Shown here: positions 3,043-27,471 of the stretch, one piece after another
Layout: every line of letters starts with the position of its first letter
Position numbering within the stretch: position 1 is the stretch's first letter
Source of the DNA: Myxococcales bacterium
GTDB lineage: Bacteria > Myxococcota_A > Polyangia > Haliangiales > Haliangiaceae
Direction of reading: 5' to 3'
Length of the DNA stretch: 45,090 nt
NCBI GenBank assembly: GCA_016794525.1
Contig: JAEUJY010000077.1
Coordinates: 1 to 45,090 of the forward strand
The notes under the pieces: generated by a model
Database searches by the model: none
What the model was told of the DNA's origin: nothing
The model's input: the letters and a program-made list of their open reading frames with translations, nothing else
Made by a program: the position numbers and the translations under genes

Positions 3043-4247
3043 AGCAGAAGGTCGCGATCATCGGAGCGTTCGTCGCGTTCGCCGTGGTGCTGATCCTCGT
3101 GGTCGGCGGCGGCGGCAAGAAGAAGGGTGGTGACAAGCCGGCGCCAGGACCGCCGCCGGCCCCCGCCGGCAGCGGCACGTCGTCCGCCGGCGGCAAGGTC
3201 ATGATCGACTTCCTGTACTCCAGCGAGAAGAAGGACTGGATCGACGCGGCGATCGTCGAGTTCGAGAAGGCCAACCCCGACGTCGACGTGGTCGCGGCCA
3301 GCAAGGGCTCGCTCGACGCCGCGTCCGGGATCCTCGACGGCAGCCTCAAGCCGGTGCTGTGGAGCCCGGCCGACTCGCTGATCGTCAACCTGCTCGCCAC
3401 CGACTGGCAGACCAAGTACGGCAAGCGGCCGTTCCCCGCCGACGGCGAGGCCGGGCCGCAGCAGCTGTTGCTGTCGCCGCTGGTGTTCGCGGTGTGGGAA
3501 GACCGCGCCAAGGTGCTGATGGCCGCGTCGGGCGGCGACAGCCTGACGTGGAAGGCGATCCACAAGGCGGTCACGTCGCCCAAGGGCTGGTCGGCGATCG
3601 GCGGCAAGCCGGCCTGGGGCTTCGTCAAGCTCGGCCACACCGACCCCAACAAGTCCAACTCGGGCCTGCAGGCGCTCTTGCTGATGACGCTCGAGTACTA
3701 CACCAAGACCAGCGGCCTCACCGTCGACGAGCTGTTCGACGAGAAGTACCAGACCTGGGTCAAGGAGATCGAGAAGGGCGTGCCGACCTTCGAGGCGTCG
3801 ACCGGCACGTTCATGACCGACATGGTCCGGTTCGGCCCGTCGAAGTACGACATCGCGGTGGTCTACGAGAGCCTCGCGATCTCGCAGCTCGAGAACGCGC
3901 AGGGGCGCTGGGGCAACCTGCGCATCTACTACCCGCCGGTGACGCTGTGGAGCGATCACCCGGTGGTGATGCTCGGCGGCGACTGGGTCACGCCGGCGCA
4001 GGCCAAGGCCGCCGAGCGGCTGATCGCCTACCTGCGCGGCCACGAGGCGCAGAGCATGGCGCTGCGGTTCGGCTTCCGCCCGGCCGACACCTCGCTGCCG
4101 CTCAAGACCAGCGACGGCGCCAACCCGTTCACGCGGCTCGCGCAGTACGGCCTGGCGCTCGAGCTGCCCGAGGCGGCGACCGCGCCCGACGGCGCCGTGG
4201 TGCGCAACCTCCTGATGATGTGGTCGCGCGTCGCGCGGCCGCAGTAG
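3039..4247 (+). CDS. Membrane-anchored periplasmic solute-binding protein, paralog of the N-terminal domain of CDS 525..2231
   Basis: GTG start, N-terminal TM anchor IIGAFVAFAVVLILVV followed by GGGGKKKGG. Clear paralogy with gene 525..2231 (LYSSEKKDWIDAAIVEFEKANP vs IAYGSEKKAWLEEQIKAWNATGP; KLGHTDPNKSNSGL vs KLGHTHPEYSNSGL). No vWA domain. Confidence 0.8.
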   Translation: MKQKVAIIGAFVAFAVVLILVVGGGGKKKGGDKPAPGPPPAPAGSGTSSAGGKVMIDFLYSSEKKDWIDAAIVEFEKANPDVDVVAASKGSLDAASGILDGSLKPVLWSPADSLIVNLLATDWQTKYGKRPFPADGEAGPQQLLLSPLVFAVWEDRAKVLMAASGGDSLTWKAIHKAVTSPKGWSAIGGKPAWGFVKLGHTDPNKSNSGLQALLLMTLEYYTKTSGLTVDELFDEKYQTWVKEIEKGVPTFEASTGTFMTDMVRFGPSKYDIAVVYESLAISQLENAQGRWGNLRIYYPPVTLWSDHPVVMLGGDWVTPAQAKAAERLIAYLRGHEAQSMALRFGFRPADTSLPLKTSDGANPFTRLAQYGLALELPEAATAPDGAVVRNLLMMWSRVARPQ

Positions 4248-21992: not shown

Positions 21993-23297
21993 TCAGCGGA
22001 AGATCACCGGCACCGCGGTGAGCTGGCGGTCGCGTGAGTCGGGTGGGGCGTCGACGCCCAGCGCGCCGCCGTCGTGCTCGCCCCAGCAGCGCACCGAGCG
22101 ATCGGCGAGCAGCGCGCAGGCGTGGTACTGCCCGGTGGCCACCGCGATCGTGTCCTCGGTGCCGGGGATCGCGCGCGGTCGACGGAACGACCAGTCGGTG
22201 CTGAAGGACCACTGGCCCCAGCACCACACGTCGCGGCTGGGTGAGAGCGCGCAGCTGCGGCCGTGGCCGGCGCTGACCGCGACGCCGTGGACGCCGCCGC
22301 CGGCCCAGACCCACCAGCGGCGATCGGCGAACACCTGTTCGTGGGTCTTCGGCGGCGCTGTCGGTTCGGGCGGACAGCAGCGATCGGGTCGCGGCGGATC
22401 GCGCGGGTCGCGCGGTGGCGGCGCGTCGGTCCAGCGGCACACGACGCCGCGCTGGTCGTACGGATCGCACTGCGCGTTGTCGGGGACGCGCTGATCGCCG
22501 AGCTGGCCGAACTCGTCGGCGCCGCCGCACCACACCAGCGTGTCGGTGTCGGCGAAGCAGACGTGGCGCCAGCCGATGCCGATCGCCGTCGCCTTGGCCA
22601 GCGGCTTCGACACCGTCGCGCGCAGCACCGGCCCCGGGACGTTGCCGAAAAGCCCGGCGGTGTTGAAGCCCCAGCAGCGTGGGCCGCCCTCGGCGACGAA
22701 CGCGCACGCGACGTCGTCGCCCGCGACCAGCCGGGTCGCGCCATGCAGGCCGACGACGCGCCCGGGCCGCGCCGCCGCGTGCGGATCGCCGCCGTGGCCG
22801 ACCTCGCCGGGGTGGCCCCAGCACCACACCGCGCCGTCGCGATCGCGCGCGCAGGTCTGGCCGCCGCCCGCCACCACCTCGACCACGCCGCTCACGCCCT
22901 CGACCGTCGCGATCGTGTCGCGCGACACCAGCGTCCCATCGCCGAGCTGCCCGTTGCGGTTGTCGCCCCAGCACGCCACCGTGCCGTCGCCGCGAGCCAC
23001 GCACACGTGCCGCGTGCCCACCGCCAGCGACACCACGCCCGTCAGCCCGATCCGCGTCGCCACCGCCGCCGCCGGTATCGCCGCCAGCCCCACCGCGCCC
23101 CAGCACCACACCTCTCCCGACTCCGCCAGCGCGCAGCTCCGCCGGTCGCCCACCCCGATCGCCTGGATCGCCGGCCCCGCCCCCGCATCCACCGCCACCG
23201 CCGCCGCATCCACCGCCACCCCGCCATCCGCCGGCGGCGCCGCCGCGCGCCCCGCCGTCCCGCACGCCATCAGCATCAACAGCATCCATCGTCCCAT
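21993..23297 (-). CDS. RCC1 (regulator of chromosome condensation)-repeat lipoprotein
   Basis: Start MGRWMLLMLMACG. Repeated units H.CA.....V.CWG.N..GQLG (for example GTRHVCVARGDGTVACWGDNRNGQLG, GQYHACALLADRSVRCWGEHDGGALG). Confidence 0.8.
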   Translation of the reverse strand: MGRWMLLMLMACGTAGRAAAPPADGGVAVDAAAVAVDAGAGPAIQAIGVGDRRSCALAESGEVWCWGAVGLAAIPAAAVATRIGLTGVVSLAVGTRHVCVARGDGTVACWGDNRNGQLGDGTLVSRDTIATVEGVSGVVEVVAGGGQTCARDRDGAVWCWGHPGEVGHGGDPHAAARPGRVVGLHGATRLVAGDDVACAFVAEGGPRCWGFNTAGLFGNVPGPVLRATVSKPLAKATAIGIGWRHVCFADTDTLVWCGGADEFGQLGDQRVPDNAQCDPYDQRGVVCRWTDAPPPRDPRDPPRPDRCCPPEPTAPPKTHEQVFADRRWWVWAGGGVHGVAVSAGHGRSCALSPSRDVWCWGQWSFSTDWSFRRPRAIPGTEDTIAVATGQYHACALLADRSVRCWGEHDGGALGVDAPPDSRDRQLTAVPVIFR

Positions 23298-23317
23298 CGC
23301 CCGACAAACGCCCCACC

Positions 23318-23592
23318 CGGGGACAGGATCTACCCCTCCATCACTTCGAAATCACTCCAGATAATCAGCCCACCGCGTCGCAAAAGGGGACAGGATCCTG
23401 GGTCGCAAGCATCCAGAATCAATTGCGATTTTCGGCCGAGCGCGGCGAAATGCCACCGACTCCGGCGGCGACGGCAACGAGAAACACGCAAACTTTCAAC
23501 GTCTTACGACCCAGGGAAGTGTCCCTTTTCGCGACGCGCGGCCCGATTTTTCAGCAATGATTTCATCGCGATGGAGGGGTAGATCCTGTCCC
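23318..23592. repeat. Roughly 275-bp AT-richer palindromic (MITE-like) element with 23-bp perfect terminal inverted repeats GGGACAGGATCTACCCCTCCATC (23321..23343 and 23570..23592) and nested imperfect inner inverted repeats
   Basis: The right arm is the reverse complement of the left arm. Identity is perfect for 23 bp, about 65% over the next 40 bp, and again high for the inner pair 23376..23410 / 23500..23538. Local GC is well below the window average. Confidence 0.55.
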
Positions 23593-24414
23593 TCGGGCGC
23601 AGCGGGCGCCGAGCTCGACGCTGCGGCGGCCGGGCTCGCCGCTCCAGCGGCGGGCGACCCGGAAGGCGTGGCGCTCGGCGGTGGTCCAGGCGCCGCCGCG
23701 CACGACGCGCTGTCCCTCGACCCGGCAGGTACCGCCGGGGCCGTAGGGGGCGTAGAGGTCCGCGGTCCACTCCCAGACGTTGCCGGCCATGTCGAGCGCG
23801 CCGGCGGCGCTGGCGCCCTGCGGGTAGCTGCCGACCGGCGCGGTCTGCGAGTGGCCGTCGTCGCCCCCGATCTCGGACGTCCGCGCGTGGCCGAGCGACG
23901 TCAGCTTGGCCGCGCAGTCGGCGCCGCAGGCGTTGAGCCGCGTGCCATCGGGCGGCGCTTCGCCCCACGGATACGTGCGTCGATCGCCGCCGCGCGCCGC
24001 GTACTCCCACTCCGCCTCCGTCGGCAGACGGCCGCCGCTCCACGCGCAGACCGCCTGCGCCTCGGTCCAGTCGATGCAGTTCATCGGATGGTCGCCGCGG
24101 TCGGCGAAGTTCGCGTTGCACGGGGCGTACGGCTTCGGCGGCGGCGGGCACGCGCCGGCGGCGGCGCACGCGGCGTACGCGGCCACCGTCACCTCGGTGC
24201 GGTCCAGGCAGAACGACGCCACCGCCACGTCGTGCTGCGGATACTCGTCCTCGGCGCCGACGCCGTCGGGCGACCCCATCTGGAAGGTCCCGCCCGCGAC
24301 GAGCACGCTGCCGTGGGCGCACGCGTCGACCGGCGGTGGCGGCGAAGGCGGTGGCACATGCTCCGCCTTGTCAGCACAGGCGGCGACGAGCACCAGCGCG
24401 ACGGCGCTCCGCAT
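23563..24414 (-). CDS. Formylglycine-generating-enzyme (FGE/SUMF1) family lipoprotein
   Basis: Start MRSAVALVLVAACADK. FGE-family blocks: FQMGS, YPQHDVAVASFCLDRTEVT, RLPTEAEWEYAARGG, YPWG, DMAGNVWEWTAD, RVVRGGAW. The last 9 codons and the stop are encoded inside the right TIR of the palindromic element. Confidence 0.8.
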   Translation of the reverse strand: MRSAVALVLVAACADKAEHVPPPSPPPPVDACAHGSVLVAGGTFQMGSPDGVGAEDEYPQHDVAVASFCLDRTEVTVAAYAACAAAGACPPPPKPYAPCNANFADRGDHPMNCIDWTEAQAVCAWSGGRLPTEAEWEYAARGGDRRTYPWGEAPPDGTRLNACGADCAAKLTSLGHARTSEIGGDDGHSQTAPVGSYPQGASAAGALDMAGNVWEWTADLYAPYGPGGTCRVEGQRVVRGGAWTTAERHAFRVARRWSGEPGRRSVELGARCARGTGSTPPSR

Positions 24415-24577
24415 CCTGCGAGTGGAGCATGCTTCGCCGCCTCGTCGCTCCACACGCCGTCCTCACGACGTTCGGCGCCCACGACGATCGGCGCTCTGCG
24501 GCTACACATGTCCGCGCCCGCCGGTGAAAACGCGCGCCAGGCCGAATTTACTGATTGATTCCAGATGGCTAAGACCC

Positions 24578-24591
24578 TAGATCCTGTCCCC
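24578..24591 (+). repeat. Fourth copy of the core TAGATCCTGTCCCC, immediately abutting the ATG of CDS 24592..26058
   Basis: The same 14-mer forms the core of both TIRs of the palindromic element. It is preceded by TGATTGATTCCAGATGG, which resembles TGATTTC..GATGG in the TIR flanks. Confidence 0.5.
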
Positions 24592-26058
24592 ATGACGATT
24601 CGGGTGCTGATGGCGCTGGCGCTGCTGGGGTGTAAAGGGAAGCCGGCGGCGGTGAAGGAGCAGCGGGTGGCGGATGCGCGGGTGGCGGCGGGGGAGCGGT
24701 GGGGCGGGGCGATCGAGATCGCGGGGCAGGTGCCGCTGGAGTTCGAGCTGATGTGGATGCCGGGGCCGGCGGCGACGATGGCGATCCCGCAGCAGGGGCT
24801 GGCGGCGACGGCGCTGGTGGACGTGACGGCGACGGGGAACGCGATGACGTTCACGCTGCAGCCGCCGGGCGCGGCGCCGGCGGCGTACGCGCGGTTCGCG
24901 GTGGAGCGCGCGGCCGACGGGACGACGGCGCGCGGGACGCTGAAGCAGAACGGGGCGGAGCTGCCGGTGCGGATGCGCCGGCTCGCCGACGGCGAGGTGG
25001 TCGGCGCGGCGCCGGTGCGCCCGCAGGAGCCGAAGCCGCCGCTGCCGTACGACGCGCGCGAGGCGAGCTACGCCAGCAAGGACGGCACGCGGCTGGCCGG
25101 GACGCTCACCGTGCCGCGCGGCGGCGGGCCGCACCCCGCGGTCGTGCTGATCACCGGCACCGGCGCGCAGGACCGCGACGAGTCGCTCGCCGGCCACAAG
25201 CCGTTCCTGGTGCTGGCCGACCACCTGACCCGCCACGGCGTCGCGGTGCTGCGCGTCGACGATCGCGGCGTCGGCGGCTCGGGCGGCGATACGGCGGCCA
25301 CCGACCTCGACGGCAAGGTCGAGGACGCGCTGGCCGGCGTCGCGTGGCTGCGCCAGCAGCCCGACATCGACGGCGCGCGGGTCGGCCTCGTCGGCCACAG
25401 CGAGGGCGGCGTGATCGCGCCGATGGCCGCGAGCCGGCCCGACGCGCGGATCGCGTTCATCGTGCTGCTCGCCGGGCCCGGCGTCACCGGCGCGCAGGTG
25501 TCGCTGCGCCAGCTCGAGCAGATCATGCGGGTCGGGGGCTCGGACGAGGCCACGATCAAGGCCGCCGTCGATGGCCAGCGCGTGCTGCTGGCCGCGCAGG
25601 CGCGCACCGCCGATCCGGTCGAGCTGCGCAAGGCGATCGAGGCCCGCATCGACCAGCTCGCGCAGCTGGCGTCGCCGGTCGAGCGCGCGCAGTTCACCGG
25701 CGACGCGCGCACCGCGATGATCACCAACGGGCTGGCCGGCCTGGCGTCGCCGGCGTCGCGCTCGTTCTCGCTGACCGACCCCGCGCCCTACCTCGCCAAG
25801 GTGCGCTGCCCGGTGCTCGCGCTCGGCGGCAGCCTCGACCTGCAGGTCGCCGCCGACGAGAACCTCGCCGCGATCCAGGCCGCGCTCGCTCGCGGCGGCA
25901 ACCCCGACGTCACCGTCGCCACGCTGCCCGGCCTCAACCACCTGTTCCAGCCGGCGCGGCGCGGCCTGATCGACGAGTACGCGCAGATCGAGACGACGTT
26001 CGATCCGGCGGCGCTCGAGCGCGTGTCGACCTGGCTCACCGCCCGCGCCGCGCGCTGA
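24592..26058 (+). CDS. Alpha/beta-hydrolase fold lipoprotein
   Basis: Start MTIRVLMALALLGC. Nucleophile elbow GHSEGG. Later Asp/His region (LGGSLD, LNHLF). A roughly 150-aa N-terminal extension precedes the hydrolase core. Confidence 0.8.
   Translation: MTIRVLMALALLGCKGKPAAVKEQRVADARVAAGERWGGAIEIAGQVPLEFELMWMPGPAATMAIPQQGLAATALVDVTATGNAMTFTLQPPGAAPAAYARFAVERAADGTTARGTLKQNGAELPVRMRRLADGEVVGAAPVRPQEPKPPLPYDAREASYASKDGTRLAGTLTVPRGGGPHPAVVLITGTGAQDRDESLAGHKPFLVLADHLTRHGVAVLRVDDRGVGGSGGDTAATDLDGKVEDALAGVAWLRQQPDIDGARVGLVGHSEGGVIAPMAASRPDARIAFIVLLAGPGVTGAQVSLRQLEQIMRVGGSDEATIKAAVDGQRVLLAAQARTADPVELRKAIEARIDQLAQLASPVERAQFTGDARTAMITNGLAGLASPASRSFSLTDPAPYLAKVRCPVLALGGSLDLQVAADENLAAIQAALARGGNPDVTVATLPGLNHLFQPARRGLIDEYAQIETTFDPAALERVSTWLTARAAR

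Positions 26059-26595: not shown

Positions 26596-27471
<876 letters not shown>

Follow-up and report, generated by a model that had tools for sequence, protein, structure and literature searches.

A 275-bp intergenic palindrome in a Myxococcota genome is very probably a transposase-less derivative of a TIRtron-type transposon

RAYT-like genes that are flanked by long TIRs (inverted repeats at the termini) sharing the motif GGGGWSAS, and not by REPs, were reported in 2013 by Di Nocera et al. (BMC Genomics 14:522, PMC3733652), who named the genes TIRYTs (TIR-associated tyrosine transposases) and the units TIRtrons, and who found the TIR families to be moderately abundant, occurring as monomers, dimers or clusters. 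Within the IS200 Y1/HUH family, TIRYTs belong to the branch that resembles RAYTs. Quentin et al. (2018, PMC6006769) equated them with subclass 2.1 of TnpA-Y1, for which a C-terminal extension resembling a helix-turn-helix (HTH) domain was reported (Bac_DnaA_C / HTH_23 / HTH_28). Named in 2013, TIRYTs and TIRtrons have hardly been studied since, the term being used by just three papers of the library searched. Here we analyse a 275-bp palindrome (positions 23319-23593) that lies between genes for an FGE-sulfatase family lipoprotein and an RCC1-repeat lipoprotein in a 45,090-nt stretch of DNA from a Myxococcales bacterium (GenBank assembly GCA_016794525.1, contig JAEUJY010000077.1, positions 1 to 45,090), hereafter the window. 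The palindrome is a real but fairly ordinary relic of a mobile element, and we are largely confident that it is a non-autonomous derivative of a TIRtron-type transposon, devoid of the transposase gene and with arms made of double units (A+B and B'+C). The TIRYT/TIRtron kind is already known; the Myxococcota host clade and the double-unit ends are new.

A first-pass annotation of the window had described an AT-richer, MITE-like element (MITEs being miniature transposable elements with inverted repeats) with perfect 23-bp TIRs. Direct reading of the window gives the 23-bp perfect inverted repeat GGGACAGGATCTACCCCTCCATC at 23320-23342 and its exact reverse complement at 23570-23592, so the perfect inversion and the right arm were placed correctly, whereas the left arm, put at 23321, starts one base further to the left. 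A repeat finder widens this repeat to 90-nt arms (23320-23409 and 23503-23592) that are 76% complementary and separated by 93 nt, in line with the imperfect continuation of the arms noted previously. The nested inverted pair that had been seen within them corresponds to GGGGACAGGATCCTGGGTCG (from 23386) and CGACCCAGGGAAGTGTCCC (23507-23525). GC content is 0.585 across 23300-23599 against 0.74-0.79 in the flanks, which agrees with the lower GC content claimed for the element. The 275-303 nt region folds as minus-strand RNA into a single long hairpin of -184 kcal/mol (z -13.5); the palindrome region reaches -155 kcal/mol as plus-strand RNA (z -11.6) and -80 kcal/mol as DNA (z -10.1). No shuffled sequence was equally stable in the RNA or the DNA folds, and the description of the whole region as one long hairpin is thus borne out.

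The 45-kb window holds four copies of the motif GGGACAGGATC when at most one mismatch is allowed (plus strand, 23320 and 23387; minus strand, 23582 and 24580), compared with a mean of 0.77 in shuffled windows, none of 100 of which reached four. As previously noted, all four copies are found within 1.3 kb, between 23320 and 24590, and nowhere else in the window; copy C ends in CCCT instead of CCCC. Oriented with the motif at the 3' side, the four motif regions align over 66-90 nt and all contain TGATT-N19-GATCCTGTCCC with fixed spacing. They are four units (A, B, C and D) of one repeat of about 66 nt and do not represent a regulatory motif of their own. A profile made from 69 units of the family finds only these four in the window, one doublet and one monomer, arranged as follows:

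23319-23385, minus strand: unit A, the outer unit of the left arm, with minus-strand end ...TGATTTCGAAGTGATGGAGGGGTAGATCCTGTCCCC (profile match E 3.6e-9); the GGGG at its outer end (23319) is separated by 21 nt from the ATG of the RCC1 gene.
23386 to about 23450, minus strand: unit B, which follows A in tandem on the inner side of the left arm and whose outer end at 23386 is GGGGACAGGATCC (profile match 23386-23443, E 1.9e-8).
23451-23502, no strand: central spacer or hairpin loop, judged by the fold, at the position where full elements hold the transposase gene; tblastn with the L148 and L149 transposases (P0170 and P0171) found no coding remnant in these 52 nt, the single match in the window being spurious and elsewhere (E 0.83).
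23503-23525, plus strand: B', the inner terminus on the right, degenerate in sequence (CGACCCAGGGAAGTGTCCC) and pairing with B.
23526-23593, plus strand: unit C, the outer unit of the right arm, with end GATGGAGGGGTAGATCCTGTCCCT (profile match E 7e-8); its minus strand encodes GTGSTPPSR and the stop of the FGE gene.
About 24526 to 24591, plus strand: unit D, a solo unit nearest in sequence to B, with a CCCC end that adjoins the ATG (24592) of an alpha/beta hydrolase gene (profile match 24551-24591, E 1.7e-7).

B' and C together form the mirror arm of A and B, and the outer ends of the 275-bp element read GGGGACAGGATC. The GGGAAGTGTCCC form of the inner terminus is the norm in this subfamily, the motif being aligned also at loci L115, L118, L129 and L146.

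At a number of related loci, inverted units enclose a gene. At L079, L086, L091 and L119, units about 800-900 bp apart surround one open reading frame (ORF) of 216-250 aa, and the same unit-ORF-unit layout is found at L148, L149, L155 and L172, giving eight loci in all. Proteins P0170 (L148) and P0171 (L149), like the ORFs of L079, L086, L091 and L119, match Pfam Y1_Tnp (PF01797) above cutoff, as do thus all six proteins tested. The Y1 genes of L155 (222 aa) and L172 (216 aa) were found by tblastn with P0170 and P0171. L148 and L149 hold two of more than 2,400 relatives found by a protein search. For the ORFs of L079, L086, L091 and L119, REP_Tyr_transpos is the best NCBIfam model (E 1e-12 to 1e-17, below its equivalog cutoff), and the HUH histidines H60 and H62 and the catalytic Y120 are invariant in their alignment. 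The closest structure in the PDB for the Y1 ORFs is 4ER8, E. coli TnpA-REP, and a C-terminal extension of about 90 aa is conserved in the alignment of the Y1 proteins.

The ends of these full-length elements tie them to the window. The inverted outer ends of all eight read GGGGACAGG(A/C)TC, and the termini of the metagenomic elements L155 and L172 are identical to the window's over 21 nt, unit A having the same terminus. In both, the Y1 gene is the sole ORF of at least 150 aa on its strand between the ends; L155 has an additional 278-aa ORF on the opposite strand. L148, from a Myxococcales metagenome-assembled genome (MAG; JADJUF01), carries a tandem double unit to either side of the gene, and L149 has exact GGGGACAGGATC ends with a double unit at the left. 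These tandem double units have the architecture of A-B and B'-C in the window. The 275-bp element thus corresponds to both TIR arms of a full-length TIRYT-bearing transposon with the gene missing, and D is a solo unit of the same family. At L148 itself, the right double unit and the last ~40 nt of the transposase gene are tandemly duplicated (3646-3787 and 3829-3970) with a period of 183 bp.

We assigned the transposases by comparison with the reference TIRYT and RAYT proteins in supplement 5 of PMC3733652. In BLASTP searches the Myxococcota Y1 proteins match published TIRYTs (sml 1152/4509, tkm 1558, aba 2776, pca 3049 and gsu 2396) with E values of 1e-22 to 1e-36 and 30-39% identity over ~180 aa, whereas matches to canonical RAYTs (eco b228, pfs 3939 and sml 2816) have E >= 1e-8 at best. 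By this BLASTP grouping the TIRYT matches are better by 15-25 orders of magnitude. The window terminus GGGGACAG fits the TIR motif of TIRYTs, GGGGWSAS or GGGG[AT][CG]A[CG].

We searched a collection holding one genome per species (~6e11 bases, the source genome of the window being outside it) for the pattern TGATT-N19-GATCCTGTCCCC, which has 17 specified bases. Of the 69 loci found, 45 are in Myxococcota-type MAGs:

JADZFZ01: 19 loci with 21 matches.
JANNBP01: 8 loci with 15 core copies.
JADJGV01: 4 loci.
Kofleriaceae DATLIC01 and DASZXE01: 4 loci together.
JACCYD01: 3 loci.
JALYRN01: 2 loci.
Further Myxococcota-type MAGs: five single loci.

The chance expectation for this pattern is ~0.001 per 10-Mb genome, and conservation reaches well past the search pattern into the flanks. 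The remaining 24 loci are lone matches in unrelated taxa, at chance level for the pattern. Four Serratia loci (L092, L098, L123 and L145) share one conserved pattern site whose flanks are mutually orthologous and bear no relation to the Myxococcota units, so that the match arose by chance and was inherited in Serratia. When metagenomes were scanned with the window's 20-nt terminus, 23 loci were obtained, 20 of which carry family units, mostly as doublets, and a scan of viral contigs with TAGATCCTGTCCCC gave 77 single, chance-like matches and no phage link.

The 11-nt core occurs mostly in divergent inverted pairs, with GGGG ends outermost and 120-280 bp apart, at 17 loci besides the window. 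These pairs are 120-185 bp long in most genomes and 234-278 bp long in JADJGV01 and the window. Neither direct repeats nor target-site duplications were found beside the 18 doublets, in keeping with transposition of the HUH type; the GATC beside the JANNBP01 doublets is part of an extended palindrome. The duplications for which the first-pass annotation had proposed to look are thus absent. At some loci (L090, L101, L105, L111, L133 and L143 of JANNBP01, as well as L095 and L124, at 2895-2960) the palindrome runs past the GGGG ends into a second module, GATCTGCAAGTGCTC, and short tandem arrays sometimes lie beyond the ends (two copies of TGTCCCCGATCTGGAAGTGCTC in L105, for instance, or repeats resembling GGTCATTCCC in L124). 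The window subfamily has a similar GGAAGTG within its inner motif, GGGAAGTGTCCC.

The palindrome separates two genes on the same strand, and the hydrolase gene is divergent from the FGE gene:

21993-23297, minus strand: RCC1-repeat lipoprotein gene (Pfam RCC1_2 and RLD), downstream of the element and on the same strand as the FGE gene.
23563-24414, minus strand: FGE-sulfatase family lipoprotein gene, 283 aa (P0001; Pfam PF03781, E 1e-56), with its 3' end inside unit C.
24592-26058, plus strand: alpha/beta hydrolase (S15/S9-like) lipoprotein gene, called as 488 aa (Pfam), with the lipobox LLGC after the ATG at 24592.

Each of the three products has, as read from its sequence, a lipoprotein-like signal peptide at the N-terminus. 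The FGE protein (P0001) is a 100% match to an NCBI MAG protein, and an exact look-up of the RCC1 protein returned no record. The positions of the units relative to these genes are as the first-pass annotation had them: 21 nt lie between the RCC1 ATG at 23297 and the GGGG at 23319; copy D ends at 24591, directly before the ATG at 24592; and the last nine codons of the FGE gene occupy 23566-23592, its stop (23563-23565) lying in the arm just to the inside of the 23-bp perfect part. An in-frame ATG at 24565 would add nine codons (MAKTLDPVP) to the hydrolase within unit D; both the context of the lipobox and the product as called, of 488 aa, speak for 24592.

A C-terminal alignment indicates how the element meets the FGE gene. 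Its homologs stop 1-4 residues past a conserved G(F/L)RCA, whereas in the window protein ...GARCAR is continued by GTGSTPPSR. The FGE Pfam domain ends at codon 23593-23595, directly beside unit C. The right arm thus gives FGE a nine-residue tail and its stop codon. The comparison of FGE orthologs that had been suggested as a check hence gave homologs without the TIR-encoded tail, and the suggested copy count gave a TIR unit that is multi-copy in related genomes and not unique to this locus. Since neither a unique TIR nor a shared C-terminus was found, the interpretation as a mobile element is supported.

A sister genome, JADJGV01, holds the same locus. By blastn, its contig L129 runs collinear with the window to either side, at identities of 90.7% and 95.8% for the two sides, and has the element at the same place, beside the RCC1 ortholog (L129 2620-3924). 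The element at the 3' end of the FGE gene would predate the split from the JADJGV01 lineage. One segment sets the two genomes apart:

23601-26058, no strand: 2458-bp segment with the FGE gene, unit D and the hydrolase gene, present in the window and replaced by 10 bp in JADJGV01 (L129 4231-4240) and in the metagenome contig L158.

Beside unit C, L129 retains TCGGGCGC, the 8-nt reverse complement of the last FGE-domain codons (..C-A-R), and also a short stretch like the 3' end of the hydrolase gene. Because these remnants were kept, we infer a deletion in that lineage and not an insertion in the window. The sequences point to a deletion of 2.5 kb in the sister lineage, starting 8 nt from the end of the element, with GCGC microhomology. 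Between the window and L129, the element differs at 19 of 278 aligned positions and unit A at 1 of 67 nt. Purifying selection on the left arm (unit A) was considered and rejected, the conservation not being significant against the 5-6% third-position divergence of neighbouring genes. The flanking genes have diverged at different rates: the RCC1 proteins (window 21993-23297, L129 2620-3924) differ at 59 of 435 residues with 16% of third positions changed, much faster than the CdsA-like gene (5 of 292 residues, 5% of third positions).

Two further contigs are of note. L147, a Logan contig (SRR30545106), follows window 25414-23386 through the hydrolase, FGE, C and B at 99.6% identity and departs from it at 2029/2030, corresponding to window position 23386, the outer end of unit B, continuing into a 135-aa ORF with no Pfam match and an IS66 TnpB gene. 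This switch could be a real rearrangement at the unit end or an assembly jump at the repeat. In L157 (WBZL01), two tandem units (1221-1347) end 1 nt past the stop of the ortholog of the CdsA-like gene (window 26596-27471). The window has no unit at that site, and the left neighbour gene differs, so this is not a clean filled/empty pair.

Could the palindrome instead be a regulatory feature of the host? It would then act as an operator or promoter palindrome for the RCC1 or hydrolase gene, or as an intercistronic RNA that stabilises or attenuates the FGE-to-RCC1 transcript, and its likeness to mobile elements would be secondary. We consider this quite improbable. Along the direction of transcription, units A and D do precede gene starts, by 21 nt and 0 nt, and among the 25 family units that face a co-directional gene start, 14 are within 0-25 nt of it. 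However, more units (36) face the 3' end of a convergent gene, and for at least 12 of these 36 that ORF has not yet closed on reaching the unit; unit C itself runs antisense into the FGE gene. In these counts strand was assigned by the rule GC3>GC1>GC2 (GC content by codon position), which reproduces the known window genes, antisense frames sharing high GC3 in DNA of 75% GC. The units also flank a transposase gene and are spread over many genomes. The RNA of the transcribed minus strand is ~29 kcal/mol more stable than that of the plus strand, which counts for this reading, but there was no Rfam match at gathering thresholds anywhere in the window and no compensatory substitution, and the single difference from L129 among the 67 positions of unit A, which would suit a regulatory role, is not significant against the divergence of its neighbours. 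No sigma-70-like promoter was found on either strand in a scan of 23000-24900; a promoter-like pair, TGATT-N17-TAGATC, was dropped after the link to the transposase emerged. There is likewise no intrinsic terminator on the transcribed minus strand, which after the hairpin reads CCCCGGGUGGGGCGUUUGUCGGGCG; since it has no U-tract, the hairpin is not an intrinsic terminator. The lone terminator-like site (23529-23541) is on the plus strand, where a small GC hairpin followed by TTTTT (23529-23550, in the inner part of unit C) was the sole match in the scan. The corresponding place in full elements is just downstream of the transposase gene, whose terminator this may be. The repeated regulatory palindrome that the first-pass annotation offered as its alternative is therefore not needed, and a secondary local effect on the FGE-to-RCC1 transcript could coexist with a mobile origin.

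Among mobile elements, a canonical REPIN (short REP hairpins, each with a foot of GTAG, paired as a doublet and moved by an E. coli- or Pseudomonas-type RAYT) appears very improbable despite the inverted doublets, the association with a RAYT-like Y1 gene and the choice of REP_Tyr_transpos as best model, for which scores fell under the equivalog cutoff. No internal hairpin is conserved in single units, for which RNAalifold gave -1 to -4 kcal/mol with sets of 22, 14 and 12, and the unit alignments showed no pairs of columns that covary. GTAG is present in units A and C (GGGGTAGATCC) but is not conserved across the family, JADZFZ01 having GTCGATCC and other genomes CCGGATCC or GTGGATCC. The units are therefore TIRs and not REPs, and their transposases are far closer to TIRYTs than to canonical RAYTs, by the 15-25 orders of magnitude given above. 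The size of 275 bp, the perfect 23-bp TIRs, the AT-richer composition and the intergenic position would all suit a classical MITE, an internally deleted DDE insertion sequence that moves by cut-and-paste and leaves target-site duplications. Yet this is scarcely credible, given that none of the 18 doublets is flanked by direct repeats and that the only type of gene seen between such ends, at eight independent loci, is a Y1/HUH transposase, with no DDE gene seen. The term MITE-like thus holds loosely: the element is small and non-autonomous, as proposed, with multi-copy units, inverted doublets and full-length forms around a transposase gene, but it lacks target-site duplications and its partner is a Y1/HUH protein of the TIRYT type.

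Several observations weigh against a TIRtron origin. The window itself contains no Y1 gene, only the four units. No clean pair of filled and empty sites was found, and transposition is deduced from the distribution of the units. Comparison of the window with L129 gave no compensatory changes in the hairpin and no sign of selection on its structure. In the C-terminal part of the transposases (P0170, P0171, P0121 and P0127), Pfam gave no HTH domain at E <= 10, Y1_Tnp being the only match. Finally, according to PMC3733652 and PMC6006769, TIRYT activity on its TIRs lacks a biochemical demonstration.

If the palindrome is a TIRtron derivative, a TIRYT would move, or would once have moved, units and doublets in trans through single-stranded DNA, with the arms paired as a hairpin, by analogy with IS200/IS605 and E. 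coli TnpA-REP. In the FGE-to-RCC1 transcript the element would form a very stable intercistronic hairpin, which would be a 3' stabiliser or a barrier to read-through. Such an origin accounts for the AT-richer palindromic intergenic region, for the 14-mer at three gene boundaries and for the nine-residue tail of FGE. It also carries a warning for annotation, as tails and ATG-abutting motifs of this kind are repeat-derived. With autonomous copies, miniature doublets, solo units and double-ended variants across several uncultured Myxococcota, the family is a usable model for how a Y1 transposase handles long inverted repeats. A bolder idea, which we regard as rather unlikely, is that TIRYT units are recurrent builders of gene boundaries in Myxococcota and not mere passengers, since their outer ends repeatedly abut start codons or give a stop and a short tail to convergent genes, as for FGE; the terminus beside the FGE gene may even have promoted the 2.5-kb deletion. 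If true, this would amount to a domesticated Y1 transposase system that shapes gene ends and gene content in these bacteria.

The element can be set against several known systems. Like bacterial MITEs by which gene ends are altered (Correia/NEMIS, RUP, ERIC and the RPEs of Rickettsia, for example), it is small, has TIRs, would form a co-transcribed hairpin and supplies stop codons or in-frame peptides to neighbouring genes; the MITEs among these for which a partner is known, however, use DDE transposases and make target duplications. With IS200/IS605 and their miniature derivatives (PATEs) the family shares the Y1/HUH fold and an expected single-strand mechanism without duplications, but IS200/IS605 ends are distinct subterminal hairpins, often accompanied by tnpB, whereas the ends here are inverted copies of one unit and tnpB is absent. 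REPINs or BIMEs and their RAYTs (TnpA-REP) are reportedly the subject of work by Nunvar (2010), Bertels and Rainey (2011), Ton-Hoang (2012) and Messing (2012). They resemble the family in being non-autonomous, hairpin-capable inverted doublets with a related HUH transposase flanked by the same repeats, in lacking target duplications and in their placement at gene ends. They differ in that REPs are 20-40-nt hairpins with a GTAG foot, whereas our units are ~66 nt and non-palindromic, form doublets of 120-280 bp and go with proteins distant from canonical RAYTs.

The closest likeness is to TIRYTs and TIRtrons. The differences lie in the host clade, uncultured Myxococcota, which PMC3733652 and PMC6006769 do not mention (no literature linking RAYT, REPIN or TIRYT to Myxococcota was found in the library searched), in the tandem double units at the ends of the Myxococcota subfamily, and in the proteins, which at 216-250 aa are shorter than many published TIRYTs and have no Pfam HTH at the C-terminus. 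Shared with them are a Y1/HUH protein with the N-terminal signature MPRxARxVxPGxPHHVxxRGNNR, the position of its gene between long inverted repeats with GGGGWSAS-type ends, and the occurrence of gene-less repeats in moderate numbers as monomers, dimers and clusters.

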